NCBI GenBank assembly: GCA_023229865.1
Contig: JALNYL010000005.1
Span: forward strand, 4,422 to 68,421
Direction of reading: 5' to 3'
Length of the DNA stretch: 64,000 nt
DNA from: Minisyncoccota bacterium
GTDB lineage: Bacteria; Patescibacteriota; Minisyncoccia; Phycocordibacterales; UBA1550
In this document: positions 8,530 through 33,310 of the stretch, in pieces
Layout of the letters: each line of letters starts with the position of its first letter
Numbering within the stretch: position 1 is the stretch's first letter
Program-made: the position numbers and the translations under genes
The notes under the pieces: generated by a model
Told to the model about the DNA's origin: nothing
The model's database searches: none
The model's input: only the letters and a program-made list of their open reading frames with translations

Positions 8530-9417
8530 GTGAAAACTATGAGCGAAACAGCAAAAAAGACTATTCTTGTGACAGGTGGTGCGGGGTTCATTGGGTCGCA
8601 CCTTATTGAAAAACTCGTACAAGATGAAGATAATATTGTTGTTTCTTTGGATAATTATTTTACGGGGTCTAAAGATAATCATATTGCTGGGGCGACATAC
8701 ATAGAAGGACACACAAAAGATATTGCGAAATTAATTGATTTTGCGCCGGACCTTGTTTTTCATCTTGGTGAATATTCTCGTGTGGAACAAAGCTTCGACG
8801 ATTTACAAATAGTTTGGGAGTCGAATAAAAATGGCACATTTGCGGTGCTTGAGTTTTGTCGAAAACACAACACAAAGATTGTTTATGCTGGTTCGAGTAC
8901 AAAGTTTGGTGATGGAGGTCTCGGGAGAGATCAGAGCCCTTACGCGTGGACAAAGGCAACAAACACCGAACTCGTTCGAAATTACGGGACCTGGTTCGGC
9001 ATCAAATATGCAATAACTTATTTTTATAACGTATATGGACCACGTGAAATTTCTACGGGTCCTTACGCAACCCTTATTGCGATTTTTAAAAATAAATTTA
9101 AGAACAATGAACCACTCACTATTGTTGCCCCAGGTACGCAGGTCCGCAACTTTACACACGTTGATGATATTGTGCGTGGGCTTATTTTGATCGGCGAAAA
9201 AGGGGAAGGTGATGACTATGGCCTTGGTGCTGAAGAGGGGTATAGTATTCTTAATATCGCTAAAATATTCGGCGGAGAGGTTGCAATGCTCCCTGAAAGA
9301 AAGGGGAACAGAATGGGGGCGCCTGTTGATTCCGCTCGTCCTAGAAATGAGCTTGGCTGGTGCGCAGAAAAGAGGATTGAGGATCACATCAAAGAATTTG
9401 TTAAAAACAATTCTTAA
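8530..9417 (+). CDS. NAD-dependent sugar epimerase/dehydratase family protein (UDP-sugar epimerase/decarboxylase-like)
   Basis: TGGAGFIGSH Rossmann motif, YxxxK-type SDR extended family; start GTG 8530 or ATG 8539. Confidence 0.8.
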   Translation: MKTMSETAKKTILVTGGAGFIGSHLIEKLVQDEDNIVVSLDNYFTGSKDNHIAGATYIEGHTKDIAKLIDFAPDLVFHLGEYSRVEQSFDDLQIVWESNKNGTFAVLEFCRKHNTKIVYAGSSTKFGDGGLGRDQSPYAWTKATNTELVRNYGTWFGIKYAITYFYNVYGPREISTGPYATLIAIFKNKFKNNEPLTIVAPGTQVRNFTHVDDIVRGLILIGEKGEGDDYGLGAEEGYSILNIAKIFGGEVAMLPERKGNRMGAPVDSARPRNELGWCAEKRIEDHIKEFVKNNS

Positions 9418-10657
9418 TTATCCCCCTAACCTCTTCGCTGTATTTTTTTTCTGAAAAATTTTCTTTTGCAAAAAGATGAGCCGCAGTTCTCATGTTTTGC
9501 CACTGTTCGATGTTGGTCTTTTTTAATGCGATGAATTCGTTCATGTACGATGCGTAGGTGTCAACGTCGTCTTTATTTGTGATACGCGCAAAGTCTGGAG
9601 ACAGATATTCGGTGTGTGCATTCCAAATGTGTGATCGATGGGAAATGATCGGATTCCCTGCGTGCATTGACTCAGCGATATTGAGGCCAAACGTTTCTCC
9701 GTCGTTTCTAAAATGTGCTAGGCAGTCCAGTGAGTAGTGGAATCCCCAAATGTCCAGTTCATTGCTGCTTGGTGGTATGAAATGTACATTTTTAATGCTC
9801 TCGTCGCGAACTATTTTTTCTAACAGGGGAGGGGGCGACATTATTATGTAATGTGCTTGCGGGTTCTCTTTTGAAATTTTCTGAAAAGCCCTGATTCCAA
9901 TGGGGTCAAAGATGCTATCTGCGTTTCTCCCGATCCTGCCAAACACGAAATCATCTTTGGAGATTCCAAATTCGTCTCTAATTTGTTGCCCGCGGTTCTT
10001 CTCGTTTTGGTGGTCAGACAAAACCTGTACAGGGATAAAAAGAGATCTGTTGCCCGATTGTTTCCCTGTGTATGCTTCAGCGTGTCGCTGTACTTCGTTC
10101 GAAATAAAAATATTCGCAACTATGTTTTTTTGCAGTGTAGGCGAACCAAAGATATTTATCATTATTATGGGAACACGAGAAATCGTGTTGATGGGGTACT
10201 GGGTATAACCACTGTCCGCAGTAGTGACAAGGTCAATATTGTGTTCCGTTATGACATTTTTTATATGAGGGTTCATCCCCTTGATATAAAAAGGATATGC
10301 CGATTCCTTCGCTGTGTAATCAAATTCTATACAGTGCACTCTTTTGTCGATATAGTTTATACGACTATTTGCTACATTTTTGTTCGAATATAAAAAAAAG
10401 ACATCATAGTCGTCGCAGAGGCTATTTGCTAGACTTTGGAGGTTTTTTTCGGTTCCGCCAAAACTCAACCCAGAAATATGATAGAGAAGTATCTTTTTTT
10501 TAAGGTTCAGTGTGTTTGACGTGCTTTTTTTGAGTTGGTATTCTCTTGCTTCTTTTATTGATGAGATATATTTAAAATATGCCTCGTATGAGCGTACGAC
10601 CCACTTTTTTGCAAAGAGAGGGAGTTTGGTTATTATTTTTTTAATTACGCCTCTCAT
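9401..10657 (-). CDS. glycosyltransferase family 1 (GT4-like)
   Basis: 418 aa; GT-B fold features (FGRIGRN..., HFIPPSS, E-x7-E-like C-terminal region); AT-rich. Confidence 0.75.
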   Translation of the reverse strand: MRGVIKKIITKLPLFAKKWVVRSYEAYFKYISSIKEAREYQLKKSTSNTLNLKKKILLYHISGLSFGGTEKNLQSLANSLCDDYDVFFLYSNKNVANSRINYIDKRVHCIEFDYTAKESAYPFYIKGMNPHIKNVITEHNIDLVTTADSGYTQYPINTISRVPIIMINIFGSPTLQKNIVANIFISNEVQRHAEAYTGKQSGNRSLFIPVQVLSDHQNEKNRGQQIRDEFGISKDDFVFGRIGRNADSIFDPIGIRAFQKISKENPQAHYIIMSPPPLLEKIVRDESIKNVHFIPPSSNELDIWGFHYSLDCLAHFRNDGETFGLNIAESMHAGNPIISHRSHIWNAHTEYLSPDFARITNKDDVDTYASYMNEFIALKKTNIEQWQNMRTAAHLFAKENFSEKKYSEEVRGIIKNCF

Positions 10658-10659
10658 GT

Positions 10660-11400
10660 TTATTTGAATTGTAAATATGTCGCCATTTTCTTTATCGCCC
10701 TTTCAATAACGTTGAAGAGCCAACTGAGCTTCCAGCCAAGATTTGTTACGCTCCCTGTCTTGTGGTTTGGTAGAACGTCTTGCTCGCCGACGCATACTCC
10801 AAAAATCCCGCTCGGATATCCTCCGATCTCAATATTGCAGAAAAATAATTGCCAGTTGGGAAGATTTTTAATCCACCAGTCTTTATTTCGCACGTGCCAC
10901 ATGTTCCAGCTTGTGTTTTTGTCGTACCGTTCATCGAAGAATAACGTTGAATTCGTGGGGAGGTTATTTACGTATGACAAAAACTCCTCTACGTAGTAAT
11001 TTTCAATATGATTCAAGACTGTTGCCGTTGTTATGAATACAGGAGCTTTGATATCTAGCTGTTGTAGCCCATCAATCATATCTGCATTAATAAAGGAGAC
11101 ATTCGTGTTTTCTTCGTTGATCCTTGTTGCTACTTTTGTGATGGCTGTTGACGGCTCTATCCCGATGGATTTTTTAAAGAATCGAGAACTTTTTCGCACG
11201 AGCCATCCGTTCCCAGAACCAATATCAATATGGGTTTCTGGTAGGGGATTGGACATTCTTATTGCGAGTTCAAAACCTAGCGTTTTAAATAGATTGCACT
11301 GATCGTACTTTTTGATGAGTTGAATGTTGTTTTCGTAACTGTTCGTCTCTTCAAGATATTCAGAGTTATGCTTTTCGTAGCTTTGTAAGTCTTTTTTCAT
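10660..11400 (-). CDS. class I SAM-dependent methyltransferase
   Basis: DIGSGNG motif I; 246 aa. Confidence 0.75.
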   Translation of the reverse strand: MKKDLQSYEKHNSEYLEETNSYENNIQLIKKYDQCNLFKTLGFELAIRMSNPLPETHIDIGSGNGWLVRKSSRFFKKSIGIEPSTAITKVATRINEENTNVSFINADMIDGLQQLDIKAPVFITTATVLNHIENYYVEEFLSYVNNLPTNSTLFFDERYDKNTSWNMWHVRNKDWWIKNLPNWQLFFCNIEIGGYPSGIFGVCVGEQDVLPNHKTGSVTNLGWKLSWLFNVIERAIKKMATYLQFK

Positions 11401-11405
11401 AAAAT

Positions 11406-12362
11406 TTATTGAATTATACTATTTTTTACCTTATTCTTTAAGTCGTTTAAGAAGAGTAGCCAGTCGGGGAATACCCTTGCTTCTGGTCCTCTGCCTACTT
11501 TTCTCACAAACATCTCTCTCAATTCTGGTATATCCCAAATATCGAGTGATTCAAAAAATACGATGTTTTTTTGCTCAAAAAGAGTGCTAATCTGTTGTAT
11601 GTAAAAATCATAATCCGCGTCTGTTCGAATGTCTTTAAAATTGGAAAGCGTAAATTCATCCTTGAGCAGTTCTTTGTTGCGTGCCACAGATTCTTTTGAG
11701 TGGCGGTATGTGGCGTTGATCCTTCTTGCGGAGCGGCTACCCTCGACTAGCTCGCTACAGCGGTACCAGGCTTGTTTCAGCTGATTTCTTTTTTGTGCAA
11801 TCTTTTGAAAGTGAAGCACGTACCCTGTTTCAAAGGAATGGTATGTTTTAAGCGTATGATCTCCCGGGGTTCGTTCTTCTGAGAGAAACTGCTTTTTGTA
11901 GGTGCTTGTTCCGTCGTCGGAAAAAATAAAATCTTTATAGATCGACCTATCGGTTGAATTAAAGCAAAGTTCTCCGTTGTCTTGCCTTATCAAAACCCAT
12001 GGCAAAAACAATGTCGCCCCTTTATCCATCGAGCTCACCGTTTCTTTGAGTTTTTTTGAAAACTCGCCCGAGAATGTTTCGTCAGCATCAAGAAAAACGA
12101 AATGGGTACCATTAGACCTTCGCCCCTCTTGTAAAAGGATGTTTCTGCGGAGCGACATATCAACATGACGCTCTGTCGTTTCGAAGGGGACGACGCGCAC
12201 CTTGGGGTATTCTTGCGCTATTTCAAGCAGGTCATCTGTTGAATGGTCGTCCAAAATGATTATTTCATCTGAAAAAAGAGAGAAATTCTTAAGAGAAAAT
12301 CGTAAGATCCAACCTTCGTTTTTTACGGGGACAAGAGTGATTATTTTCATATTATTGAACAT
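11406..12362 (-). CDS. glycosyltransferase family 2
   Basis: IILDDHSTDD and FLDADE (DXD) motifs. Confidence 0.8.
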   Translation of the reverse strand: MFNNMKIITLVPVKNEGWILRFSLKNFSLFSDEIIILDDHSTDDLLEIAQEYPKVRVVPFETTERHVDMSLRRNILLQEGRRSNGTHFVFLDADETFSGEFSKKLKETVSSMDKGATLFLPWVLIRQDNGELCFNSTDRSIYKDFIFSDDGTSTYKKQFLSEERTPGDHTLKTYHSFETGYVLHFQKIAQKRNQLKQAWYRCSELVEGSRSARRINATYRHSKESVARNKELLKDEFTLSNFKDIRTDADYDFYIQQISTLFEQKNIVFFESLDIWDIPELREMFVRKVGRGPEARVFPDWLLFLNDLKNKVKNSIIQ

Positions 12363-13047
12363 TACGTATGATGGTATCGTTCTCTTTTTTTTGTAGGTCG
12401 TTTTTTGAACCGCTTAATGTTTTTCCGTCGTTGTTGAAAACACCTGAAAGGGTCTTTGTCTTTATTATCCTCACGTTTTTTTGTGCCGCGCGCGACCACC
12501 AGTCAAAGTCACCAGAGATCTTGAACGATTCATTGAATTCCCCGACGATACTAAATGTCTCCTTGGTGAACATAAAATGCGGACCTGCGTACATACCAAC
12601 TTTGAAAAGTTCGCGATCGTACTCAGCCGGATCAACGACCTTTATCATTGCAAGGATCTTGATGCCCCATACATAGATATATCTTTTATAGATGTACGGG
12701 AAATAAGTCGCTTGGAATCCCTTGCTAAGATTCGCGCTTCCTTCGATGAATGCTTTCGTAAAACGCAGGTCATCCACAGCCCAGAAGGTGATGTATTCAT
12801 AGAGACTTTCTTTGGTGCCCCTGTTCCAACTTGCATAAAGAGTTTCTCTGGGGACGGTGATAATTTTAAAGTTGAGGCCGGAGTTTCCTACGAGCATCCT
12901 TTCTTGATTTGAAAAATCGTTTGCGACCAAAATGTGTTCAAATTGGATATTTTGTTTTGCTAATCCATGATGAACCTTCTGGGCGCTTTTAAGGAACGCT
13001 GGAAGGTGTGTTTCTGATTTATACAAAGACGTGACGATGGAGATCAT
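12352..13047 (-). CDS. glycosyltransferase family 2-like
   Basis: N-terminal ISIVTSLYK, WAVDD DXD-like motif; 231 aa. Confidence 0.6.
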   Translation of the reverse strand: MISIVTSLYKSETHLPAFLKSAQKVHHGLAKQNIQFEHILVANDFSNQERMLVGNSGLNFKIITVPRETLYASWNRGTKESLYEYITFWAVDDLRFTKAFIEGSANLSKGFQATYFPYIYKRYIYVWGIKILAMIKVVDPAEYDRELFKVGMYAGPHFMFTKETFSIVGEFNESFKISGDFDWWSRAAQKNVRIIKTKTLSGVFNNDGKTLSGSKNDLQKKENDTIIRNVQ

Positions 13048-13053
13048 GTTGAA

Positions 13054-14265
13054 TTAAATAAGTTTTTTGATTTCGTTAATCACTGCTTCGGTGCTTATGT
13101 TACTCACACAGGGGGCAGGGCTCCCTGTGGTAAGTCCATTTGCGCAGGCGTAGGCGTCGTTGAGGCAGTCCATGTTTTTTACTGAAACAACGATGTTCTT
13201 TTCCGTATCTTGGGACGGGTAAAATTCTTTGAAATGACCAAGTCCTAATGGGCAAATCACGGTTGCTCCCACGGCCTCGGCTAAATGCGTCGGGCCGCTG
13301 TCGTTCCCAATATAAAATTTTGCCAATCGTATTATGCCCGCAGTGGAAAAGATGTTCGTTTTTGCTGTTAGGTTAAAGATGTGATCCATCTTGCTTTTGT
13401 CGACATGTTGTAGGATTCCCTCCGCTAAGTTTTTTTCCATTGCGGAGCCACAAATAACGACATCGAAATTGTGTTCAACGAGATGCTCTGCAATTTTTGC
13501 AAATTTGTCGACTGGCCATTTTGAAACAGCTCTTCCTGCGCCAGGGAAGATGACGACAAATGCTCCTTGGGCAATCCCGTATTCGGACAGTATCTTTCGA
13601 GCGCCAGCAATGTCACTGTCTTTTGAGGGGAAGGTTGTTGAGTAGTCGTCAAATGTTTTTCCCGCTAATTCTTCAATAAGATGTTTGTGTCGATAAAATT
13701 CATTTGAAATAGTTGTAGGGGTGCGTATCAACTTTGTGTACGGGTCCAAGAGAAAAATCCGACCTAGTTTTTCAACTTCATATCCCGCAAAAGATATTTT
13801 TTCTGTAGCTTGTGTTGCTCTTACGATAAAGTCGCTGATTTTTCTTCTGTAATATATTGGATTTATTACGGTATCAAAATTCATTTGGTAAAATTTCTTA
13901 GACAGAGCAAATCTGTAGAAAATATTTTTCGAGAATTTTTTTGCGTCAAAGAGAATGACATTGTCGACATTTTCTCCTTTGTATCGGTTGGCAATTTCGT
14001 AGTTGATTTTATTATCAACGAGAAGAGATATTTCATAACCAGGAAAGACTTCTCGGTATTTTAGTAATGACGGGAGGAAAATAATGAAATCGCCCAGCCC
14101 TTCAAGCTTGATAAGAAGTAATTTTTTCTTGGTATTTTGGTCTCTTCTTGTGAAGGGCAAAGTGGCCATTATCAAATTATTTACCAGTGTTCGGAAAAGA
14201 TTTATTGCAGAGTTCATGTTGTTGCGAGTGGGGAAGTGGTTGTTGATTAAAGCAAAGTATATCAT
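13054..14265 (-). CDS. glycosyltransferase family 9 (ADP-heptose:LPS heptosyltransferase-like)
   Basis: KLEGLGDFIIFLPSL and GNDSGPTHLAEAVGATVI motifs typical of GT9; alternative start at 14217. Confidence 0.75.
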   Translation of the reverse strand: MIYFALINNHFPTRNNMNSAINLFRTLVNNLIMATLPFTRRDQNTKKKLLLIKLEGLGDFIIFLPSLLKYREVFPGYEISLLVDNKINYEIANRYKGENVDNVILFDAKKFSKNIFYRFALSKKFYQMNFDTVINPIYYRRKISDFIVRATQATEKISFAGYEVEKLGRIFLLDPYTKLIRTPTTISNEFYRHKHLIEELAGKTFDDYSTTFPSKDSDIAGARKILSEYGIAQGAFVVIFPGAGRAVSKWPVDKFAKIAEHLVEHNFDVVICGSAMEKNLAEGILQHVDKSKMDHIFNLTAKTNIFSTAGIIRLAKFYIGNDSGPTHLAEAVGATVICPLGLGHFKEFYPSQDTEKNIVVSVKNMDCLNDAYACANGLTTGSPAPCVSNISTEAVINEIKKLI

Positions 14266-14373
14266 TTCTTGTTGTGCGGGAACAACTTAATCCCGCAACG
14301 CCGCAGCCCTGTACAAGAGCGTTAATATGTAGTATATTTGCGGGAGTTGTACTTTACCAATGAGGAGAAAAAA

Positions 14374-16215
14374 ATGAATGCACCCCAGCAGAGAATTCGG
14401 GTTTTGTTGGTTGCTCGATATTACATCATTGAGCCCCTCGGAATCCTCCATTTGATAGGGCTTGCTGATTCGATTGGTTGTGAAGTTGATGTGGAGCTTG
14501 TCCCCGGGAATGACTTTTCTGCTCTTTACAAAAAGGTAGAAGAGTGGAAACCGGATTTTGTTGGTTTCCAAATTTGGACAGGGTGGCATCTCCAGATTTT
14601 TGCGGCTTGTGATCATGTCCGCAACATGGGGACAAAGGTGATTGTCGGTGGCCCTCACGTCACGTACTTCACCCACGAATGTGCCAAGCATGCTGATTTT
14701 GTTGTTCGCGGTGACGGTTTCCGTAATTTCAGGCGCATCTTGCAGGGAGAACTTCTCCCTGGTATACATTTTGACGTCGAACAGCTGGCGGAGTCGTTCC
14801 CTATGCCTAATCGCAGTATCGTGTACAACAAGTACCCCGCATTACGCAATAGCCCCATTCGTAGCATAATTACATCTGTTGGTTGTCCCTTTACGTGTAG
14901 TTATTGCTACGCACCAGAATGGAACAGGATGTATGGTGGTTTCAGACACCGACAACGTTCGGTGGATGACATCATTCGCGAAGGGGTTGAAATCAGTACC
15001 AAGTGGGGAGCGGAGATGGTCTACATTCAAGATGACATCTTTGGCTTTGATAAGGTTTGGCTTGCTGATTTTGCAAAACGATGGAAGGAAGAAGTTAACC
15101 TTCCGTTTCATTGCCAAATCCGATTGGAGCTTACTCGTCATACTGCCGGAGATGAGAGGTTGGACCTCTTCAAACAGGCGGGGTGTACTGGTATTACGCT
15201 TGCTATTGAGTCAGGTGATCCGTTTCTAAGGGAGCATGTTCTTCACCGCGAAATGTCAGACGAACTTATTCTTGAGGGGTGTGCGAAGATTCGCTCCCGA
15301 GGGATGACGCTTCGTACAGAGCAGATTCTTGCGGTCCCCTTTAGTAATCTGGATACAGATCTTTCGACTCTACACCTTAACAACCTTGTTGCACCAGAAA
15401 TGGCTTGGACTTCGATCTTGGTGCCATATAGTGGCACTGAATTGGGTGGAATTGCCAATGCCTTTGGTTATTACAAAGGAGAAAACGACGATATTAAGGA
15501 GGTGTTTTTCGACAGAAGTGTCATGCGACATTCAAAAACCGCAAAGGGTGTCGTGGAAAAAGTTGTCGGTGAAATGGTTAGAGTGAATAAAACCATGGAG
15601 AAGGCACAGCAATATCGGGGTTCCCCCTTGCAACGCCTCGAAGCACGAGAGGTAGCACCGTTTGTCTCGGAAGTTTTTATTCGTGATGGACAAGGCTCGT
15701 CTTTCCCGGTGCTCCCGTCTCGCCAAAAGCCGCTCTGCACCATTGAGTTTTTGAACGATGAGGAGAACGATCGATATTCCAATCAAATCGTCATTCTTCA
15801 AAGGCTCTTTATGTGGTTTGCCGCTGTCCCAGAAGCACGCGAACTCGCCAAGAGATATATATCACTTGAGCAGGAAGAGTGGACGTGGGTGCGCCTTGGC
15901 GAGGTCGTCATGGAGCACTTCAAACTGCTCGGAAAGGAGCAAGACGCAGAAAGGTGGATAAATGAACTCGTTCAGGCATTCAGCTGTGATTCTCGAGATG
16001 AATTGCCAAGCGTTGTGAAGGATAATCCACTCTACTTCGTTTTCTTTCCTTCGAGCGCTGATTTTGCTAAGCATGTTGTTGCACTAAATGTAATCAACAT
16101 GAAGGCAGAGCCAGGACGTCAGTTTGACGAGCTCGGTGGGGTGGCGCGTAGATGGTTGTTTGATACTGCTCTTTATAAAATTGTTCCCGCAACAAAACCA
16201 ATTGCTTGCGATTGA
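14374..16215 (+). CDS. B12-binding domain radical SAM protein (class B radical SAM, putative C-methyltransferase)
   Basis: N-terminal cobalamin-binding Rossmann-like region, then CPFTCSYC CxxxCxxC radical SAM cluster motif; GGAG SD upstream. Confidence 0.8.
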   Translation: MNAPQQRIRVLLVARYYIIEPLGILHLIGLADSIGCEVDVELVPGNDFSALYKKVEEWKPDFVGFQIWTGWHLQIFAACDHVRNMGTKVIVGGPHVTYFTHECAKHADFVVRGDGFRNFRRILQGELLPGIHFDVEQLAESFPMPNRSIVYNKYPALRNSPIRSIITSVGCPFTCSYCYAPEWNRMYGGFRHRQRSVDDIIREGVEISTKWGAEMVYIQDDIFGFDKVWLADFAKRWKEEVNLPFHCQIRLELTRHTAGDERLDLFKQAGCTGITLAIESGDPFLREHVLHREMSDELILEGCAKIRSRGMTLRTEQILAVPFSNLDTDLSTLHLNNLVAPEMAWTSILVPYSGTELGGIANAFGYYKGENDDIKEVFFDRSVMRHSKTAKGVVEKVVGEMVRVNKTMEKAQQYRGSPLQRLEAREVAPFVSEVFIRDGQGSSFPVLPSRQKPLCTIEFLNDEENDRYSNQIVILQRLFMWFAAVPEARELAKRYISLEQEEWTWVRLGEVVMEHFKLLGKEQDAERWINELVQAFSCDSRDELPSVVKDNPLYFVFFPSSADFAKHVVALNVINMKAEPGRQFDELGGVARRWLFDTALYKIVPATKPIACD

Positions 16216-16257
16216 TGTTATGGGGAAACGCCGCTGAGTTATTTCAGCGGCGTTTTT

Positions 16258-17545: not shown

Positions 17546-17551
17546 TTTTTT

Positions 17552-18514: not shown

Positions 18515-18591
18515 TAATATAATTAGTGTGTCCTTGAATTATAGCATTTTTTGAAGACCATGCCTTTTGTTTTGTGCTATTATTGATTTTG

Positions 18592-23254: not shown

Positions 23255-23260
23255 CTTCAT

Positions 23261-24115: not shown

Positions 24116-24119
24116 TAGC

Positions 24120-24890: not shown

Positions 24891-24901
24891 GATTGGGAAG
24901 T

Positions 24902-25810: not shown

Positions 25811-25814
25811 AGTT

Positions 25815-26513: not shown

Positions 26514-26556
26514 GATGTTCGTAAGTTTTAGTATACCATCAACACACTGAGATCCA

Positions 26557-27486
26557 TTATTTATAATTTTCTTTGAACCACTCGTATGTTGATATGATGC
26601 CTTCGTCGAGGGGTATGGTGTGCTTCCAACCAAGATTGTGAAGTTTTGACACATCAAGTAGTTTTCTTGGGGTGCCGTCGGGCTTGGTTGAATCCCAGAC
26701 TATCTCGCCTTCATAGCCGACCACCTCTTTAATCTTTTCCGCGAGCTCTTTAATGGTGACGTCTTCTCCTGTGCCGACGTTTACAATTTCAGAATCGTTG
26801 TAATTCTCTACAAGGAAGATGCTTGCTGCAGCAAGGTCGTCAACGTGAAGAAACTCGCGCATAGCGCTCCCTGTGCCCCAGAGGGTAATAGTAGGGCTCC
26901 CTGAAGCCTTGGCTTCGTGGAATTTACGAATCATTGCAGGCATAACGTGCGAATTTTCAAGGTCAAAATTGTCATTTGTGCCATAGAGGTTTGTTGGCAT
27001 GAGTGAAATAAAGTTAGTGCCATATTGTTCATTGTAAGATTGGCACATAATAATGCCTGCAATCTTTGCGATGGCGTAGGCTTTATTGGAAGGTTCGAGT
27101 GCGCTTGTGAGAAGGTACTCCTCTTTGATCGGCTGTGGACAAAGTTTTGGATAAATGCACGAGCTGCCGAGGAACAACAATTTCTTTATCTTGTTTTCAT
27201 AAGCGCTTTGAATAATGTTTGTTTGTATAACAAGGTTGTGATGGATGAAATCAGCGGGGTAGGTTTTGTTGGCCATAATCCCGCCCACTTTTGCAGCGGC
27301 GAGAAAAACATACTCAGGTTTTTCTTCCGCAAAGAAGTTAGTGACTGCTTGTTGATTGGTGAGATCAAGCTCTTTGTGTGTTTTTAGAACAAGATTGGTA
27401 AAACCCGCTTTTTCTAGCGCTCGTACAATAGCAGATCCTACGAGTCCACGATGTCCAGCGACAAAAATTTTTGAATTCTTTTCCAT
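26557..27486 (-). CDS. fcl: GDP-L-fucose synthase (GDP-4-keto-6-deoxymannose 3,5-epimerase/4-reductase)
   Basis: [14 protein letters not shown]..., YxxxK SDR; operonic with gmd. Confidence 0.9.
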
Positions 27487-27494
27487 GTTATAAA

Positions 27495-27947
27495 TTATTT
27501 AGATTTTGTAAAACCTGCCAAAACAAGAAACTTTTTCACATAAGGATGCCAGGTGTCGTCAATATGAGTATACCATTGATATTCTTCATTTTGTGTATCA
27601 AGAGCTACGGTGTCGCCATCGTCTTTAGAATTAGCGAGAAAGACAACGTTTATTGTATGTGTGGAGTCATCAAATGGACCGTCGGGGAACATCGTTTCGT
27701 CTACGCCAAGGATCTTTTCAATACTTATTTCAATTCCCAATTCCTCCTGCGCCTTTCTTTTTGCTGCATCTTCGAGCCCCTCACCCTTAAATATTCTTCC
27801 TCCTGGGAAAAACCATTGCCCCTGAGCGGGCTTGTTGTTTCGTTTTGCGAGTAAGAAGGAATTATCCCTCACGACAACAACATCGACGCAGACAATAGGG
27901 AGGACTGCGTGAATCTTTTGGTAGAGTTCGGTGGGGATGTGATTCAT
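27495..27947 (-). CDS. gmm: GDP-mannose mannosyl hydrolase-like Nudix protein
   Basis: Nudix box [25 protein letters not shown]; location between gmd and fcl. Confidence 0.75.
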
Positions 27948-27963
27948 TTAGGGGCGTCTAACT

Positions 27964-29046
27964 TTATTCGTAATGTTTTTCAATGGTAAATCCACCTTTG
28001 GTGAGGTGTAGATCTTTCTTTGCTTCTGCGAGGTCAGTCGCAACCATTTCTTTTACGAGACCTTCAAATTTAATCTCTGCCTCCCACCCAAGTTTTTTTC
28101 TCGCTTTTGATGGGTCTCCAAGGAGTGATTCAACTTCAGTCGGACGGAAATAGCGAGGGTCTACCTCAATAATTGTTTTCCCGGTAGTTTTGTCGATGCC
28201 GATTTCATTAACACCCTCTCCTTTCCACTCAAGCTCAATACCAAGCTCTTTGAAGACGGCGTCACAAAAAACGCGCACGGAATATTGTTCGCCCGTTGCA
28301 ATCACAAAATCTTCTGGGGTCTCCACTTGGAGCATGAGATACATTGCGTTCACGTAATCTTTTGCATGGCCCCAGTCGCGTTTCGCATTGAGATTACCAA
28401 GAAATAATTTCTCTTGGAGACCTAGAGAGATTCGTGCTGCTGCACGGGTGATCTTTTTAGTAACGAACGTTTCGCCACGACGAGGGGACTCATGGTTGAA
28501 GAGAATTCCTGACACTGCAAATATACCATAGGCTTCGCGATAGTTTTTGGTAATCCAATACGCATACACCTTTGCGGCGCCGTAGGGACTGCGTGGGTAA
28601 AAAGGAGTTTCCTCACTTTGGGGCGGAGGAGTTGCTCCAAACATTTCTGAGGTTGATGCTTGGTAGAATCTCGTTTTTTTCTCAAGGCCAAGGAGACGGA
28701 TTGCTTCAAGGATGCGGAGCGTGCCGAGCGCGTCTGAGTTACCCGTGTATTCAGGGACCTCAAAAGATACCTTCACGTGACTCTGTGCGGCGAGATTATA
28801 AATCTCGTCGGGTTGAACTTCTTTGATGATGCGAATGAGGTTGGTTGAGTCGGTGAGGTCTCCATAGTGAAGAAAGAGTCGTTTTCCTGACTCGTGCGGA
28901 TCTTGATAGATGTGATCGATTCTTCCTGTGTTAAAACTACTTGCGCGACGAATCAGCCCGTGGACCTCGTACCCCTTTTCAAGGAGGAGTTCTGCAAGGT
29001 ATGAACCATCTTGCCCGGTAATTCCTGTTATAAGTGCTTTTTTCAT
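27964..29046 (-). CDS. gmd: GDP-mannose 4,6-dehydratase
   Basis: [27 protein letters not shown]... canonical Gmd N-terminus. Confidence 0.95.
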
Positions 29047-29141
29047 ATAAAGGAATGTTACACTATTTTTACCTGATTTGGTAGCGTTTATTAGGGAAAT
29101 TGTGGTACGATAAAAACAAACAGAACTTCTTGGGGAATTCT

Positions 29142-30557
29142 ATGAAAGAACAATTAAATAATCACCATTATGCAGTAATACTTGCGGGGGGGTCGGGGAC
29201 AAGGCTCTGGCCTATTAGTCGTGAGCTCTACCCAAAGCAGCTCTTGGCCCTTACGGGGAACAAAACGCTTATTCAAGAGACTTTTTTGCGAGCAGAAAGT
29301 ATTGTTCCAAAAGAAAATATTTTTATCGTTACGAATAAACAGTTCACTACAGATATTCTTCTTCAGCTTAAGGAGTATGGTTTTGTGCGCGATCAGCTTA
29401 TTATCGAGCCATCACAAAAAAATACAGCCCCTGCAATCGCTCTCGCAGCTCAAGTTATTGAAAAGAAAGACAAAGATGCCTTAATGTTCGTCGCCCCTGC
29501 AGACCATCTGATTGTCGACGCGATGGGGTTTAAAAAAAGTGTGATCAATGCATTTGCGCGCGCAAAAGAGGGGAAACTTATAACGTTTGGGATTACTCCA
29601 GATAATCCAAGTACTGAATACGGTTATATTAAACCCAATAAGGACATTATCGACGGGGAAGCAACCTCAGTTGAATGCTTTGTTGAGAAGCCCCCATTAG
29701 AAATCGCTGAAAAATATATTAAAGAAGGGTATCTTTGGAATGCGGGTATTTTTGTGTGGGGAGTTAAGTCATTTAATGAAGAGCTCAAAAAATATTTGCC
29801 TGAGATTATTCATGCGATTTCTTTACGAGATAAAGATGAAGAGAAATTTGTTGAACATTTTTCGGTTATATCTCCTGTATCAATTGATGTTGGTCTTCTT
29901 GAGAGGAGTAGGGAAGTCGAAGTAATCAAAGTTAATTTTGGATGGAAAGATATTGGCTCCTGGAAGTCCTTGTATGAGCTTCTTGAAAAGGATGAGTGCG
30001 GAAATGTACTAAACGAGCATGCGCTTACTATCGATTGTGAAAATTCTTTAGTGTATGGCAACTCAAAAAGAGCCACCGTTGCAATAGGAATAACAGGGAT
30101 TGTCGTCGTGGACACTGAGGACGCGGTGCTCGTGGTTCGGAAAGAAGAAACGCATAAAATTAAACATGCATACGCTGAGCTCAAGGAGCGCAACAAGATG
30201 CAGTATAAAGAGCACAAGACCGTAATTCGTCCTTGGGGCTCGTACACCGTGCTTGAAGAAGGGCTTGGTTATAAGGTAAAAAAGATCGTCGTGAATCCGC
30301 ATGAAAAACTTAGCCTTCAGCTTCACCACAAGCGCTCAGAGCACTGGGTTGTAATACAGGGGACAGCAAAGGCGACTGTCGGCGAAAACGAGCTTCTTTA
30401 TGGTGCGCATCAGACCGTTGATATCCCTGTTGAAACAGTGCATCGTCTCGAAAATCCAACCAACGAAATCCTTGAGATTATAGAGGTACAGAGTGGTGTA
30501 TATTTGGGAGAGGATGATATTGTCCGCTATGATGATGTGTACGCGCGAAATGTTTAG
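29142..30557 (+). CDS. manC: mannose-1-phosphate guanylyltransferase / mannose-6-phosphate isomerase (bifunctional, C-terminal cupin)
   Basis: ILAGGSGTRLWP nucleotidyltransferase motif; C-terminal cupin (HHKRSEHWVV). Confidence 0.9.
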   Translation: MKEQLNNHHYAVILAGGSGTRLWPISRELYPKQLLALTGNKTLIQETFLRAESIVPKENIFIVTNKQFTTDILLQLKEYGFVRDQLIIEPSQKNTAPAIALAAQVIEKKDKDALMFVAPADHLIVDAMGFKKSVINAFARAKEGKLITFGITPDNPSTEYGYIKPNKDIIDGEATSVECFVEKPPLEIAEKYIKEGYLWNAGIFVWGVKSFNEELKKYLPEIIHAISLRDKDEEKFVEHFSVISPVSIDVGLLERSREVEVIKVNFGWKDIGSWKSLYELLEKDECGNVLNEHALTIDCENSLVYGNSKRATVAIGITGIVVVDTEDAVLVVRKEETHKIKHAYAELKERNKMQYKEHKTVIRPWGSYTVLEEGLGYKVKKIVVNPHEKLSLQLHHKRSEHWVVIQGTAKATVGENELLYGAHQTVDIPVETVHRLENPTNEILEIIEVQSGVYLGEDDIVRYDDVYARNV

Positions 30558-30577
30558 ACATTTCTAAATTTAACGGA

Positions 30578-31306
30578 ATGAAAAAACATTTCTTTTTTGA
30601 TATGGACGGCACCCTTACGCGCTCGCGCAGTGAGATAACTGATACTATGGTCGCGTGTCTTCGGGGGCTTATTGAAAATGGGGGAGATGTGATTGTTGTG
30701 TCGGGAGCCGTAAAAAGTCAGATTATTAAACAAATTGGCGAGATAGTAAAAGATGTTGTAATCTTGGCGCAAAATGGTAACCATGCCGAATCTTCATCAG
30801 GAGAGATTGTCTGGCGCAATGAGCTGACTGCAATTCAAAAAAATGAAACTCTGAAACTTGCTCGCAAGATGATCGGCCATGCGAATCTTGGAATTAGGGA
30901 TCCTGGTGATTTAGTTGAAGATAGAATGTGCCAGATTTCATATTCATTGATTGGACACAATGCTCCCCTTGAAGAGAAAGAGGCTATAGATTCTGAAAAA
31001 ATAATTCGTAAAGGCCTCCTTTGTTGCTTTGAGAAAGAAATTTCTCAATTGAATATTCTGGGAATCCAGGCACGTATTGGAGGAACGACGTGCATTGATT
31101 TCACCGCTCTCAATAAGGGGGATAATGTGAAGTGTTTTATTGAACGTATGGGGTGGGACCCTGAGGAGTGTATTTATATTGGAGACGCTTTGTTTGAGGG
31201 TGGAAATGATCATAGTGTGGTTGGGGTTGTTCCCACCTACTCTGTTGATTCACCTAGGGGGTGTGAAGATGTAATCCGTTCATTCATTAATGAACTGGGG
31301 GCGTAA
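30578..31306 (+). CDS. HAD-family phosphomannomutase-like phosphatase/mutase (eukaryotic PMM-type)
   Basis: FDMDGTLT HAD motif I; position after manC. Confidence 0.6.
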   Translation: MKKHFFFDMDGTLTRSRSEITDTMVACLRGLIENGGDVIVVSGAVKSQIIKQIGEIVKDVVILAQNGNHAESSSGEIVWRNELTAIQKNETLKLARKMIGHANLGIRDPGDLVEDRMCQISYSLIGHNAPLEEKEAIDSEKIIRKGLLCCFEKEISQLNILGIQARIGGTTCIDFTALNKGDNVKCFIERMGWDPEECIYIGDALFEGGNDHSVVGVVPTYSVDSPRGCEDVIRSFINELGA

Positions 31307-31342
31307 CGTCGGTAATTTAAATATGGTATACTTCTACACATT

Positions 31343-33310
31343 ATGAATATCCATAAATTTTTAGCGAATGCGGTGGTTTTGGCGGGGTTTGTGGCGATAC
31401 CATTCATTGCCTTCATTATTCTTGGACAAAGTACATTTTTCCCCTTTATCACAGGGAAGAACTTTGCCTTTCGTGTCATTGTTGAAATAATGCTTTCTGC
31501 GTGGGTTGTACTCGCGTTTATTGATCCCGCGTATCGTCCAAAGAAAAGCTATCTTCTTGGTGCTTTTGCGGCGCTCATTGGTATCATCACTCTCTCTGCG
31601 ATTTTTGGAGAAAATCCTGCAAAGAGTTTCTGGTCAAACTTTGAGCGTATGGAAGGCGTCGTGACATATTTCCATCTCTTTGCATACTTCATCGTCGCAT
31701 CCACCGTGCTTTCAGTGCGTGATTTATGGAAGCCATATCTCAATCTTCATCTAGGTGCTGGAGTTATTATGGCCATCTATGGTGTGCTCCAGTGGGCGGG
31801 ACAGGTCAAGGTTGTGCAAGATGGGATCCGTATCAACGGCACTCTCGGCAACGCAGAGTATCTAAGTACCTACGCGCTCTTCAATATTTTCCTTGCGCTC
31901 TATATGCTCGTGCGTGAAAATTTCGAAACGACATCGGGTAATGTGCGCGCTGCGATATATGCTGTCATCGTCGTTCTCCAGACATTTGTCCTCTATCACT
32001 CGGGGACACGTGGGGCTATGCTTGGACTTCTTGCGGGGGTAGGACTCACGACGCTCCTCATTGCTATTTTTGAGAAAGAACGCAAGACGATTCGCAATGT
32101 TGCCATTGGGGCCCTTGTCGCCCTCGGTCTCCTTGTTGGTGGTTTTATCGCTGCCCGTGATACGGCAATCGTGCAGGGGAGTCCTGTCCTCTCTCGTCTC
32201 GCTGCTATTTCTCCATCAGAGGGCACCGGTAAGGCGCGTCTTATGGTGTGGGGGATGGCGTACGAAGGATTTAAAGAGAAGCCTATCCTTGGTTGGGGTA
32301 TGGATAACTTTGGTTATGTTTTCAATAAGTACTATGATCCAAATATGTGGGGACAAGAGCAGTGGTTCGACCGCGCTCACAACGTCTTCTTTGATTGGTT
32401 GATCGCGGGTGGAATCCTCGGACTCCTTGCATACCTCTCACTTTTTGGAGGAGCTCTCTTTTATATTTGGCGACGACAGAGTGGGCTCTCTGTCGTCGAA
32501 AAAAGTGTACTGACAGGGCTTCTGGGGGGATACTTCTTTCAAAATCTTTTTGTATTCGATAATATCACAAGCCTCGTCTTGCTCGGAACAATCCTTGCGT
32601 ACGTCGAGAGTTTTGGAAAAACAGAAACGCTCCCTGTTGTGGAAAATAAAAAAATAAATAAGTCTGAGGACGCAGAAGATTTGACCTTCATGATTTCAGG
32701 TGGAGCTTTTATTCTCGCTATTGTTCTTATTTATATAGTGAACTACAAAGGCTTTATGCAGAACACGACACTCCTTCGTGCATTATCGGAAAGAACATCA
32801 GAGGGGATTGCCCATAACCTTAATCTTTTTAAAGAGGTGCTCGCGTATAACTCTTTCGGGACAGCTGAAGCGCGCGAGCAATTGGGGTCTATTGCGATGA
32901 ATGGTCTTGATCGCTCGAAGGAGATTACTGAGGTTCAGAAACAATTTATCATCCTTGCCAGTGATGAGCTTGAAAAGCAGGTTGCAGAAGTACCAGGAGA
33001 AGCGCGTCATCAGGTTTTTGCCGGGTCGTTCATTGCGCGCACGGGGGATATCGATAAAGCAATTGGATACCTAGAAAAGGCAGCAGAACTTTCTCCAACA
33101 AAACAGGCAATCCTCTTTGAGCTTGGTAATGTGTATTACAACAAGAAGGAGCCCATAAAGGCTGAGGAAACATTTAAGCGCGCGTATGAGCTCGCGCCAG
33201 AGTTTGCGACAGCAGAGAAGTACTATTTGCAGGTCCTCCTCTTAAACGGCAAACGCGCAGAAGCAGAGAAGCTCTTTAAGGAGCGTCCAATTCAGGGGGT
33301 CTCGTTATAA
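31343..33310 (+). CDS. O-antigen ligase/polymerase-family (Wzy_C) membrane protein with C-terminal TPR repeats
   Basis: ~12 TM helices, HNVFFDWLIAGGILGLL Wzy_C-like motif, C-terminal TPR-like repeats. Confidence 0.75.
   Translation: MNIHKFLANAVVLAGFVAIPFIAFIILGQSTFFPFITGKNFAFRVIVEIMLSAWVVLAFIDPAYRPKKSYLLGAFAALIGIITLSAIFGENPAKSFWSNFERMEGVVTYFHLFAYFIVASTVLSVRDLWKPYLNLHLGAGVIMAIYGVLQWAGQVKVVQDGIRINGTLGNAEYLSTYALFNIFLALYMLVRENFETTSGNVRAAIYAVIVVLQTFVLYHSGTRGAMLGLLAGVGLTTLLIAIFEKERKTIRNVAIGALVALGLLVGGFIAARDTAIVQGSPVLSRLAAISPSEGTGKARLMVWGMAYEGFKEKPILGWGMDNFGYVFNKYYDPNMWGQEQWFDRAHNVFFDWLIAGGILGLLAYLSLFGGALFYIWRRQSGLSVVEKSVLTGLLGGYFFQNLFVFDNITSLVLLGTILAYVESFGKTETLPVVENKKINKSEDAEDLTFMISGGAFILAIVLIYIVNYKGFMQNTTLLRALSERTSEGIAHNLNLFKEVLAYNSFGTAEAREQLGSIAMNGLDRSKEITEVQKQFIILASDELEKQVAEVPGEARHQVFAGSFIARTGDIDKAIGYLEKAAELSPTKQAILFELGNVYYNKKEPIKAEETFKRAYELAPEFATAEKYYLQVLLLNGKRAEAEKLFKERPIQGVSL

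Follow-up and report, generated by a model that had tools for sequence, protein, structure and literature searches.

A surface-glycan gene cluster that probably evolves by module exchange in a fixed chromosomal slot of a patescibacterium

Between two housekeeping blocks of a patescibacterial chromosome lies a stretch of glycan-biosynthesis genes, for which an earlier note had proposed either horizontal acquisition or rapid evolution in place. Which of the two applies was analyzed here for the window, i.e. the whole stretch of 64,000 nucleotides under study. SecA is 82-90% identical to that of Yonathbacteria MAGs; the host is an ultra-small groundwater bacterium of Candidatus Yonathbacteria (Patescibacteria). 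The Pfam/NCBIfam inventory together with synteny identified the locus of ~25 kb, around window 9401-33310, as a surface-glycan gene cluster, the gene families and the completeness of the pathway being supported directly. The slot is bracketed by murC-rsmI-DUF4015-trwB-LTD/PKD-epimerase on the left and by wzyC(TPR)-murB-secA on the right. In between, three modules were distinguished: A (~9401-22428; GT1, GT2, a GT2-like ORF, GT9, radical SAM (rSAM), methyltransferases, acetyltransferase, GT11a, DUF268a and Wzt/Wzm), B (22505-26513; DUF268b-GT11b-GT2-FkbM-GT32) and C (26557-31306; Fcl-NUDIX-Gmd-ManC-PMM). The features are as follows:

8530-9417 (+): NAD-dependent sugar epimerase/dehydratase, conserved left-edge gene (Pfam Epimerase, 145 bits)
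9401-10657 (-): GT1/GT4-fold glycosyltransferase (PF00534, 27.1 bits vs cut-off 26.4)
10660-11400 (-): SAM methyltransferase (Pfam Methyltransf_25/23)
11406-12362 (-): GT2 glycosyltransferase (PF00535, 42.8 bits; 72% identity in relative L167)
12352-13047 (-): conserved ORF, weakly GT2-like (PF00535, 17.3 bits, under cut-off; 71% in L167, syntenic)
13054-14265 (-): GT9-family glycosyltransferase (PF01075, 78.7 bits)
14374-16215 (+): B12-binding radical-SAM enzyme (PF02310 and PF04055)
16220-16261 (no strand): terminator-like hairpin of 19 pairs where the rSAM and methyltransferase genes converge
16258-16992 (-): SAM methyltransferase (Methyltransf_23, 54.8 bits)
16979-17545 (-): hexapeptide-repeat O-acetyltransferase (PF00132; Maa/WcaF-like, under cut-offs)
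17552-18515 (-): GNT-I/GT2-fold-like glycosyltransferase, frameshifted (homologues have one uninterrupted ORF of 306-325 aa)
18592-19509 (+): GT11 glycosyltransferase a, alpha-1,2-fucosyltransferase family (PF01531, 74.2 bits)
19519-20295 (-): DUF268 methyltransferase a (PF03269, 56.7 bits; 52% identity to DUF268b)
20296-21558 (-): Wzt, ABC ATPase with C-terminal carbohydrate-binding-type domain (PF00005, 84 bits; PF14524, 30.4 bits)
21565-22428 (-): Wzm, ABC-2 permease (PF01061, 56.5 bits)
22505-23254 (+): DUF268 methyltransferase b (PF03269; P0001 at 100% identity, 249 aa)
23261-24115 (+): GT11 glycosyltransferase b, 6 bp 3' of DUF268b (PF01531, 112.6 bits)
24120-24932 (-): GT2 glycosyltransferase (PF00535, 86.7 bits)
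24902-25810 (-): FkbM-family methyltransferase, weakly RfbT-like (PF05050, 79.7 bits; TIGR01444, 103.7 vs cut-off 37.7)
25815-26513 (-): GT32 (DXD sugar-binding region) glycosyltransferase (PF04488, 56.2 bits; 232 aa in L159)
26557-27486 (-): GDP-L-fucose synthase Fcl (NF047922, 509.9 bits vs cut-off 500)
27495-27947 (-): NUDIX hydrolase, GDP-mannose mannosyl hydrolase (Gmm)-like (PF00293; NF011963, 73.3 bits, under cut-off 146)
27964-29046 (-): Gmd (TIGR01472, 599.7 bits vs cut-off 415)
29100-30557 (+): ManC, mannose-1-phosphate guanylyltransferase / mannose-6-phosphate isomerase (TIGR01479, 502.4 vs cut-off 373)
30578-31306 (+): HAD-IIB hydrolase-fold protein, candidate phosphomannomutase (PF03332 PMM, 26.3 vs 22.4; TIGR01484, 65.3 vs 41.8)
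31343-33310 (+): Wzy_C (WaaL/PglL-type) membrane protein with C-terminal TPR, conserved right-edge gene (PF04932, 73.2 bits)

With respect to the gene content the earlier note was largely borne out. Its 5 methyltransferases (at 10660, 16258, 19519, 22505 and 24902), acetyltransferase, B12-radical-SAM enzyme, Wzm/Wzt and Wzy_C-like protein were all recovered in the inventory, and its GDP-fucose pathway is represented by Gmd, Fcl and ManC, all above their NCBIfam equivalog cut-offs, plus the PMM-like candidate. Against its 8 glycosyltransferases, 7 intact and Pfam-supported ones were counted, plus one frameshifted gene and one sub-threshold GT2-like ORF. Instead of six alternating operons, 8 strand blocks were counted across 9401-33310. 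The frameshifted gene comprises ORFs 18249-18608 and 17552-18175, split by one additional A in an A7 tract (T8 on the + strand, 18297-18304), and deletion of one A gives back an ORF of 320 aa. The site reads A7 in L167 and the same A8 in the Logan contig L159; owing to this frameshift the encoded pathway may differ from that of L167. The radical-SAM gene starts at the ATG at 14374 with AGGAG upstream, and ORF 14287-14769 was rejected as spurious since it runs antisense to this gene. The top PDB match of the enzyme is AprD4 (6fd2, E=1.6e-12) and no NCBIfam equivalog was matched; it probably modifies a sugar by C-methylation or deoxygenation. The epimerase likewise matched no NCBIfam equivalog, and the GT9 protein remained under every NCBIfam heptosyltransferase cut-off. 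Taken together, the terminator-like sites were not above chance.

Wzt residues 54-373 matched full-length A. aeolicus Wzt (structures 8dku/7k2t, E=5e-68), a match that covers part of the CBD, and its Wzt_C (PF14524) score of 30.4 bits lies exactly at the cut-off. The N-domain was found in 90 loci and the C-domain was recognisable in 7 of those 90. Wzt CBDs recognise caps, and methyl/phosphate capping is established (PMC9445017, PMC3482155). A WbdD-like terminator (WbdD-type kinase/methyltransferase) was not identified, capping could be assigned to none of the five methyltransferases, and among the window ORFs scanned neither an initiating phosphoglycosyl transferase nor a WecA-type initiator was present. 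The profile of the Wzy_C-TPR protein, built from 25 homologues, matched WaaL (7tpg, E=1.8e-7). R223, R299 and H346, invariant in these 25 homologues, align to WaaL R191, R265 and the AHN histidine, i.e. to the Arg/Arg/His residues whose roles in WaaL-type enzymes are described (PMC12800693).

The following scheme is inferred as regards carrier lipid, step order, recognition of the cap, acceptor and biological role. GDP-L-fucose would be made by ManC, PMM, Gmd and Fcl, and cytoplasmic glycosyltransferases, including the two enzymes of the GT11 fucosyltransferase family, would assemble the glycan on a polyprenyl-phosphate carrier, with the initiating phosphoglycosyl transferase presumably encoded beyond the window. 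Methyl, acetyl and radical-SAM enzymes would decorate the glycan, one modification probably being the non-reducing-end cap. The finished chain would be exported by Wzm/Wzt, whose type-specific C-terminal domain may recognise the glycan or its cap, and the WaaL-like Wzy_C-TPR protein would move it from the lipid carrier to a non-LPS acceptor, possibly a surface protein (S-layer, pilin), a lipid or the wall. The host, a patescibacterium, is presumed to be without outer membrane and lipid A; consequently, a lipid A-core acceptor cannot be assumed.

The locus is in several respects analogous to ABC-transporter-dependent O-polysaccharide pathways (E. coli O8/O9a, Klebsiella O-antigens, Aquifex aeolicus Wzm/Wzt): in Wzm and a Wzt with C-terminal carbohydrate-binding-type domain, in several cytoplasmic glycosyltransferases, in methyltransferases that could supply a terminal cap, in a Wzy_C/WaaL-type enzyme suited to the last transfer step and in a Wzt C-domain varying with the glycan type (PMC9445017, PMC3482155). 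It differs in its host, in the absence of a recognised WbdD-type terminator and of a WecA-type initiator in the window, and in the TPR extension of the ligase. In Gram-positives, e.g. Geobacillus stearothermophilus NRS 2004/3a, slg clusters (S-layer glycoprotein glycan) combine Wzm/Wzt export with an O-methyl cap at the end of the glycan, and the Wzy_C-domain O-oligosaccharyltransferase WsaB passes the glycan, a rhamnan, to a surface protein. Monoderm context, export, capping and transferase constitute a functional resemblance alone, whereas a fucose pathway and GT11 enzymes replace the rhamnan here and neither an S-layer gene nor an acceptor was identified. Furthermore, GDP-L-fucose de novo pathways with GT11 alpha-1,2-fucosyltransferases (colanic acid, E. 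coli O86/O128, Helicobacter pylori FutC) are paralleled by the two GT11-family enzymes, and colanic-acid/O-antigen clusters by the adjacency of ManC, Gmd, Fcl and the Gmm-like NUDIX. In contrast to these clusters, the phosphomannomutase candidate is a HAD-IIB protein (eukaryote-type PMM-like) and not ManB, and each GT11-family gene is paired with a DUF268 methyltransferase.

For comparison, the loci of relatives were analyzed (JACRKU010000024.1 without its middle part, 34986-52153; JBAZWZ010000004.1 up to 58484); all comparators are other species (SecA ≤90%), and the variability seen is between species. The order WzyC-murB-secA is kept in 11 loci (L003, L004, L005, L006, L009, L010, L015, L017, L040, L043, L052), with Gmd/Fcl directly upstream in 7 of them, and also in L080 and L086 (SecA 66-67% identity); in L008 WzyC and SecA were matched and MurB was without match. 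At least 13 close relatives, and more distant ones too, have the Wzy_C gene adjoining murB-secA, and a glycan locus occupies the same site down to ~66% SecA identity. On the left, L164, L165/L166, L170 and L171 have glycan genes after MurC-RsmI-DUF4015-TrwB-LTD/PKD; the epimerase is 81% identical in L164, again after LTD/PKD, and 58% in L165/L166. The gene sets behind this flank differ among relatives, L164 and L171 being alike. From epimerase start to WzyC end L164/L043 (the same contig) measures ~30.9 kb vs 24.8 kb here, and in another relative glycan-type genes reach at least ~20 kb past Wzy_C (~27 kb from secA), so that the size, which the earlier note called unusual given a reduced genome, does not set this genome apart. 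The closest relative, L160 (SecA 90%), keeps the genes between and including DUF268b and WzyC in collinear order with 63-89% aa identity, similar to the flank genes (56-92%), and carries NTP-transferase, TPP-enzyme, DJ-1, HAD and epimerase genes at the position of module A. L167 matches 11954-26513 collinearly, with 71-72% nt identity (86% for Wzt and 87% for Wzm), and is without module C (GDP-fucose genes) and a counterpart of acetyltransferase 16979-17545. The slot is not universal, since upstream of secA L033 matches no window protein, the sole match in L012 is WzyC-like (28% identity), and murB lies ~7 kb away in L014. The synteny comparison suggested in the earlier note thus revealed the same slot with differing modules: the internal content differed in every comparison while both flanks and the edge genes were kept, in agreement with a rapidly evolving surface-glycan locus.

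GC amounts to 0.480 (1-9400), 0.421 (9401-33310), 0.409 (33311-37410) and 0.472 (37411-64000), confirming an AT-richer stretch (42.1% vs 47-48% in the flanks) and a composition that is not uniform across the window. The AT-rich zone, however, extends beyond 9401-33310 to ~8530-37000 and takes in murB and the conserved epimerase (GC 0.414, GC3 0.355). Per-gene GC was 0.418 (26 island ORFs) vs 0.474 (33 flank ORFs; Mann-Whitney p=2e-7, out-of-frame rSAM start and ORF 14287-14769 included). GC1 was 0.470 in the locus vs 0.558 in the flanks, GC2 0.339 vs 0.383 and GC3 0.445 vs 0.483 (p=0.006), the last shift being smaller than at codon positions 1 and 2. Karlin codon bias against the flank genes was clearly raised in the left half (9401-22428; 0.415 vs 0.305, p=2e-4) and marginal in the right half (0.342, p=0.06). 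The different codon usage claimed earlier therefore holds for the left half, and foreign-looking usage is confined to module A.

The AT-richness might be a by-product of the encoded protein kinds (membrane proteins and glycosyltransferases rich in Lys/Asn/Ile/Phe) and of weak expression, without evolutionary signal. Indeed, the low GC is a property common to the locus across the lineage (dip in 10/10 relatives with the locus) and partly an amino-acid composition effect, as the GC1 and GC2 differences (0.09, 0.04) are no smaller than that of GC3 (0.04), and the right-half codon bias does not differ significantly from the flanks. As a complete explanation we regard this as possible but rather doubtful: synonymous usage does differ in module A, exactly this part is replaced in the closest relative, and the rSAM gene within it keeps flank-like codon usage (B=0.253) and ~0.47 GC both here and in L167, an AT-richer relative, so that composition tracks gene history to some degree. 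Recent horizontal acquisition of the whole 24-kb stretch as a genomic island is very improbable. It would accommodate the lower GC, the deviating codon usage of 9401-22428, the missing module A in the closest relative seen and the Y1 (IS200-like) transposase with 47-nt inverted repeats directly right of the locus, but it is already contradicted by synteny, the flanks and edge genes (epimerase; Fcl-Gmd-ManC-PMM-WzyC) being kept at the same site. The shared GC dip, a GC shift for which the first two codon positions mostly account and the flank-like identities of the right half to L160 also argue against it, and neither tRNA nor integrase was found at the locus borders, nor flanking direct repeats.

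Concerning the product, a polymer (teichoic-acid-like, capsule or EPS) that is attached to the wall or secreted, with TagGH-type export, is conceivable; the Wzy_C protein would then be a polymerase or unrelated and would not ligate the polymer. The good scores of the Wzt N-domain vs TagH/TarH models and structures are opposed by its Wzt_C-type domain and by an O-antigen Wzt as top structural relative; a scan of the window revealed neither TagF/TagD (glycerol-/ribitol-phosphate) genes nor an LCP ligase. The host is presumed monoderm, polymerases also fall under Pfam Wzy_C, and L164 and L171 possess Wzx-type flippases at the locus, the usual partners of a Wzy polymerase; yet the WaaL Arg/Arg/His residues are retained, and the protein is kept whichever exporter the relatives have, which suits a pathway-independent ligase. 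Altogether, we consider a non-ligated polymer unlikely.

The best reading, which we hold with good though not full confidence, is that the genes encode a pathway which depends on an ABC transporter and makes a fucosylated, O-methylated surface glycan, and that they sit at a conserved hotspot of replacement and evolve by exchange of modules. The stretch is, in our judgement probably, a surface-glycan biosynthesis locus in a fixed chromosomal slot that holds other internal modules in relatives. The left half alone (~9401-22428) looks exchanged: its codon usage deviates, the closest relative lacks it and another relative carries it. Synteny and modularity are directly supported, and the lineage-wide low GC together with odd codon usage in module A alone is consistent with modules being replaced through recombination in a patescibacterial gene pool rather than with island insertion. 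The enterobacterial rfb between galF and gnd is such a replacement-type glycan locus. Replacement-type flexible islands or 'glycotype' loci are also described for the Pelagibacterales O-chain cluster (PMC11898729), Alteromonas (PMC4898812) and the P. syringae CPA locus (PMC7820976). They share the fixed position between conserved genes, the modular mosaic, a lineage-specific gene complement of one functional class and a GC below the genome rest, whereas the present case is documented between species (SecA ≤90%) and not within a population, in a CPR host with a presumably very small genome. Since relatives hold the cluster at the same site with the same neighbours and modules alone are exchanged, the locus is not newly imported; bacterial surface-glycan loci usually behave in this way, with modules swapped at a kept site.

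According to Pfam and NCBIfam scans the glycan locus (9401-33310) encodes glycosyltransferases of the families GT1/4, GT2 (two), GT9, GT11 (two) and GT32 plus one sub-threshold GT2-like ORF, five methyltransferases (Methyltransf_25, Methyltransf_23, two DUF268 proteins and one FkbM), a hexapeptide acetyltransferase, a B12-binding radical-SAM enzyme (rSAM), the Wzm/Wzt pair and a Wzy_C+TPR protein, arranged as follows.

8530-9417: epimerase gene, left edge
about 9401-22428: module A, from GT1 to Wzm
14374-16215: rSAM, within module A
17552-18515 (-): split glycosyltransferase gene, within module A
20296-21558: Wzt, ATPase
21565-22428: Wzm, permease
22505-26513: module B, from DUF268b to GT32
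26557-31306: module C, from Fcl to PMM
31343-33310: Wzy_C-TPR (WzyC), right edge

Thereby nearly all of the glycan gene list of the earlier note was upheld, while NCBIfam offered no equivalog names for the glycosyltransferases or methyltransferases except for the FkbM domain. The six operons claimed there turned out to be eight strand runs, and because neither promoters (40 vs 32.8 ± 5.6 in shuffles) nor terminators (16 vs 15.7 ± 4.2) exceeded chance between 8400 and 24000, operon boundaries are unsupported beyond these strand runs. An ORF at 14287-14769 was rejected as spurious since it runs antisense to the rSAM coding sequence, which actually begins with the ATG at 14374, preceded by AGGAG. 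Scanning the whole window for tRNAs and against Rfam gave no match.

The position of the locus was compared with loci fetched from relatives (L-numbers) by tblastn of the window proteins for the right flank. The order WzyC(TPR)-murB-secA was kept in L003, L004, L005, L006, L009, L010, L015, L017, L040, L043 and L052, and Gmd/Fcl lie directly upstream of it in seven loci; in L008 WzyC and SecA matched and MurB gave no match. SecA, for which an exact look-up retrieved no entry, is 82-90% identical to that of Candidatus Yonathbacteria MAGs, and the order SecA-MurB-WzyC-...-Wzm-Wzt is retained in remoter Paceibacteria (SecA 66-67%). On the left, MurC-RsmI-DUF4015-TrwB-LTD/PKD is directly followed by glycan genes in L164, L165/L166, L170 and L171, and the epimerase is the first of them in three of these left-flank relatives, the L164 copy being 81% identical to that of the window. 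Past this edge L164 and L171 are alike (NTP-transferase, epimerase, GT2 and a Wzx-type flippase), L165 continues with a GT4 and an inositol-phosphatase, and L170 with a GT4 and two methyltransferases. Altogether the left junction was observed in four independent cases and the right one in at least twelve. Both flanks stand on a single contig in JACRKU010000024.1; L164 and L043 lie on one contig, on which the distance from epimerase start to WzyC end is ~30.9 kb vs 24.8 kb in the window. The region upstream of secA deviates in three relatives, with no window-protein match in L033, only a 28%-identical WzyC-like match in L012 and murB ~7 kb off in L014, so that the slot is common, not universal.

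The kept right flank is itself envelope-related, and small toxin-antitoxin or defence-type genes (RhuM/Fic, MazE, PemK/DUF5674) occur in relatives at varying points in the flanks or the glycan locus.

40389-47291: envelope-related stretch of the right flank, including a PAP2 phosphatase
43990-45354: processive-type GT2, 454 aa, 71-84% identical in relatives
46671-47291: VTT/DedA-family protein
L170 11895-12884, L171 4395-4649, L167 14445-15260: toxin-antitoxin/defence-type insertions in relatives

Within the slot the modules are combined differently. The closest relative, L004/L160 (SecA 90%), which was also found in this genome's own sample (L161, SRR18595301), is collinear with the window from DUF268b to WzyC at protein identities (DUF268b 78%, GT11b 63%, GT2 66%, GT32 74%, Fcl 84%, NUDIX 66%, Gmd 89%, ManC 86%, PMM 75%, WzyC 67%) which fall inside the range of the flank genes (56-92%). 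It is devoid of the stretch from GT1 to Wzm and carries in its place a module X of NTP-transferase, TPP enzyme, DJ-1, HAD, epimerase, HD protein and FkbM. L167 is collinear with 11954-26513 at 71-72% nucleotide identity (proteins: rSAM 78%, Wzt 86%, Wzm 87%), has no acetyltransferase and bears toxin-antitoxin and MerR genes in place of Fcl-NUDIX-Gmd-ManC-PMM, followed by WzyC. In L168, from a MAG labelled Gracilibacteria, the TPP/DJ-1/HAD module is joined to GT2/GT32/DUF268/WzyC. The combinations A+B+C (window), A+B (L167) and X+B+C (L160), found among comparators which apart from L159 are different species, argue for module exchange in a fixed slot and not for the insertion of an island. Same slot, kept flanks and differing content of one functional class are the features of a replacement-type glycotype locus, and the gene content differing between relatives bears out the earlier view of a rapidly evolving surface-glycan locus.

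The alternative of that note, horizontal acquisition, was drawn there in part from the deviating composition. GC amounts to 0.480 (1-9400), 0.421 (9401-33310), 0.409 (33311-37410) and 0.472 (37411-64000), confirming the claimed AT-richer stretch, and the per-gene mean is 0.418 for locus ORFs vs 0.474 for flank ORFs (p = 2e-7; in this test rSAM was read from an out-of-frame start, and the spurious ORF 14287-14769 was counted as well). The drop is bigger at the first (GC1 0.470 vs 0.558) and second (GC2 0.339 vs 0.383) than at the third codon position (GC3 0.445 vs 0.483, p = 0.006), so much of it reflects amino-acid composition. Furthermore, the AT-rich zone sets in at the epimerase gene (GC 0.414) and extends through murB to ~37000, and in 10/10 relatives carrying the locus its GC lies 2.5-6.6 points under that of secA and the downstream sequence. 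The different codon usage held for 9401-22428, with a Karlin codon bias of 0.415 vs 0.305 for the flank genes used as reference (p = 2e-4); the right half reached 0.342 (p = 0.06). An integrative, horizontally acquired island was rejected: in relatives this site is likewise occupied by a glycan locus bounded by the same edge genes, the flanking ORFs include no integrase, the locus borders show no repeats, and the window was found to be free of tRNA genes. The only mobile gene, a Y1 transposase (34070-34744), lies outside the locus. Consequently, acquisition is unsupported for the stretch as a whole and could concern the left module at most.

The composition of rSAM is decoupled from the remainder of module A: its codon usage is flank-like (B = 0.253), and its 1-kb bins form the GC peak of the locus (~0.47-0.48) in the window as well as in L167 (2462-4303), where the adjoining bins have a GC of 0.30-0.36.

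The ORFs 18249-18608 and 17552-18175, initially two hypotheticals, are really one glycosyltransferase gene (17552-18515, minus strand) broken by one additional A, which turns A7 into A8 (T8 on the plus strand, 18297-18304). Unrelated loci that encode a homologue beside Wzt, and likewise the collinear L167, have it as a single ORF of 306-325 aa; the L167 homologue is intact with A7, and removal of one A from the window tract restores an ORF of 320 aa. The A8 is present in the JGI/NCBI contig and also in L159, a Logan contig from an assembly stored independently, which has 100% nucleotide identity over 12505-26798, represents the same genotype and is the sole near-identical sequence among the comparators. 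A/T runs of at least 7 nt reach a density of 2.0/kb in the left half of the locus, as against 0.26/kb in the right flank, and no A/T tract is longer than 9 nt. The split gene could be either a switch prone to slippage or a pseudogene that has become fixed; since no run exceeds this length and A8 occurs in both assemblies, phase variation is speculative.

With respect to sugar supply, ManC (TIGR01479, 502.4 bits vs a cut-off of 373), Gmd (TIGR01472, 599.7 vs 415) and Fcl (NF047922, 509.9 vs 500) were identified together with a Gmm-like NUDIX protein. The PMM candidate is a HAD-IIB protein (Pfam PMM 26.3 bits vs 22.4; TIGR01484 65.3 vs 41.8) which has no equivalog match. The profile matches thus show a complete predicted GDP-fucose supply, with the PMM step assigned to this candidate, alongside two GT11-family enzymes. 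DUF268 methyltransferase genes stand directly beside GT11 in 8/9 occurrences in related loci (window 22505-24115 and 18592-20295; L008, L043, L088, L160, L167). The domain takes its name from C. elegans proteins whose function is unknown and which likewise cluster with glycosyltransferases (PMC7614267). The gene neighbourhood suggests that DUF268 O-methylates glycans, perhaps on fucose. A search with DUF268b retrieved 4768 homologues at E ≤ 1e-20, and L167 surfaced solely in this way; no relative indicating phage carriage of the DUF268 module was detected in IMG/VR at the sensitivity used.

Wzm (PF01061, 56.5 bits) and the adjoining Wzt (PF00005, 84 bits) jointly provide permease and ATPase, the hallmark of an ABC-transporter-dependent glycan pathway. 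Wzt matches full-length A. aeolicus Wzt (PDB 8dku/7k2t) with E = 5e-68 over residues 54-373 of 420, the C-terminal domain (PF14524), the candidate for recognising the capped end of the glycan, scoring 30.4 bits, exactly at the cut-off. Its C-terminal 155 residues are recognisable in only 7/90 loci with a common N-domain, and type-specific carbohydrate-binding domains vary likewise (PMC9445017). A metagenome scan with Wzt yielded no close relative (best full-length match 61%). In such pathways an enzyme such as WbdD terminates the chain by capping its non-reducing end; the WbdD architecture of kinase and coiled coil was seen in none of the five methyltransferases, one of which is FkbM/RfbT-like, and no initiating phosphoglycosyl transferase of the WecA/WbaP type (PF00953 or PF02397) was matched among the window ORFs scanned; the initiator may be encoded elsewhere in the genome, as is wecA in E. 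coli. The nearest solved structure to rSAM is the sugar diol-dehydratase AprD4. In the proposed pathway, cytoplasmic assembly of the glycan on a polyprenyl carrier would be accompanied by its modification through O-methyl, O-acetyl and radical-SAM chemistry and followed by capping and by export via Wzm/Wzt; finally, Wzy_C-TPR would attach it to a non-LPS acceptor.

Wzy_C ligases transfer glycans to lipid A-core (WaaL) or to Ser/Thr of pilin or other proteins (PglL/PilO/WsaB), and lipid A genes were absent from the window. The polytopic membrane protein at the right edge carries the Wzy_C domain (PF04932, 73.2 bits vs a cut-off of 31.7). In a phmmer search against the PDB it retrieved TPR designs only, and WaaL was reached only by the family profile (7tpg from C. 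metallidurans, E = 1.8e-7). R223, R299 and H346 are invariant across 25 homologues and correspond in the alignment to R191, R265 and the 'AHN' histidine of this WaaL, in which the arginines bind Und-PP and the histidine belongs to the catalytic motif (PMC12800693). As Wzy_C-TPR is kept at the locus edge with either exporter type (ABC or Wzx), we favour its assignment as a putative glycan ligase.

Several further features were noted along the window. Between wzyC and murB, a gap of 0.5-1.7 kb in relatives and 5.2 kb in L004, the Y1 (IS200-like) transposase gene (224 aa) is framed at 34020-34874 by 47-nt inverted repeats bearing the hairpin motif AATGGTGGCTGTCACCATTT, of which the window holds 3 copies vs 0.01 expected; the right end occurs twice in tandem, in exact copies of 73 bp (34729-34801, 34802-34874). 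The element is REP/RAYT-like. Two GC-rich 33-nt hairpins (33398-33430 and 37171-37203), 97% alike and followed by T-runs (ACAAAAA[C/G]CCCCGCGAAAGCGGGGCTTTTTGTT), stand after wzyC and after a small ORF upstream of secA, and resemble copies of a common terminator or repeat element. Between murB and secA, a 37-codon ORF (37046-37159, plus strand) with 12- and 15-nt repeats encodes the Lys/Ala-rich peptide MAAKKKAVKKVAKKKVAKKAVKKVAKKAAKKKTAKRA. At the LTD/PKD-epimerase junction, which in relatives comprises 48 bp or another small ORF, the 269-aa ORF 7782-8591 (minus strand) found no homologue among 5.8 billion proteins, and within it the plus strand has a strong hairpin of the terminator type (8478-8502); the ORF may be an ORFan or, if not a gene, a non-coding spacer. 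Farther downstream, a 595-aa ORF (55907-57694, plus strand) of unusual composition (GC2 0.61, GC3 0.34) has no Pfam match and, with its N-terminal hydrophobic segment and subsequent long glycine-rich stretches, probably encodes a secreted or surface protein.

The locus reveals no new system type. Functionally it resembles an ABC-transporter-dependent O-polysaccharide or S-layer-glycan pathway, and in evolutionary terms replacement-type glycan islands such as the enterobacterial rfb locus, the Pelagibacterales O-chain cluster (PMC11898729), the Alteromonas glycotypes (PMC4898812) and the P. syringae CPA locus (PMC7820976). The abundance of cell-surface modification genes in Patescibacteria has been stated in general terms (PMC12911398), and our literature searches found no description of the LTD/PKD-epimerase...wzyC-murB-secA slot. 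Tentatively, and with more doubt than belief, we propose that a conserved TPR-tailed WaaL-like ligase links a hypervariable fucosylated, O-methylated glycan to a non-LPS acceptor (for example a lipid anchor, a pilin or an S-layer protein) in these ultra-small, presumably monoderm and LPS-free bacteria, whose glycotype would be determined by the slot next to murB-secA. If so, the way in which phages or host cells recognise them would be tuned by module swaps and perhaps by frameshifts in A-tracts, and the widespread DUF268 proteins would be glycan (fucose) O-methyltransferases partnering GT11.

This patescibacterial lineage invests ~25-31 kb in a decorated surface glycan, perhaps 3-4% of the genome if its inferred size is close to that of the complete relative CP174359 (0.72 Mb). 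The investment is made in a fixed slot with exchanged modules, the same arrangement as for O-antigens in the streamlined, free-living Pelagibacterales and in Gram-negative pathogens. For CPR biology the locus offers a conserved candidate ligase as a handle, a predicted surface chemistry of fucose, O-methyl and O-acetyl groups, and, in LTD/PKD-epimerase ... wzyC-murB-secA, a syntenic marker by which glycotypes may be catalogued in metagenomes.
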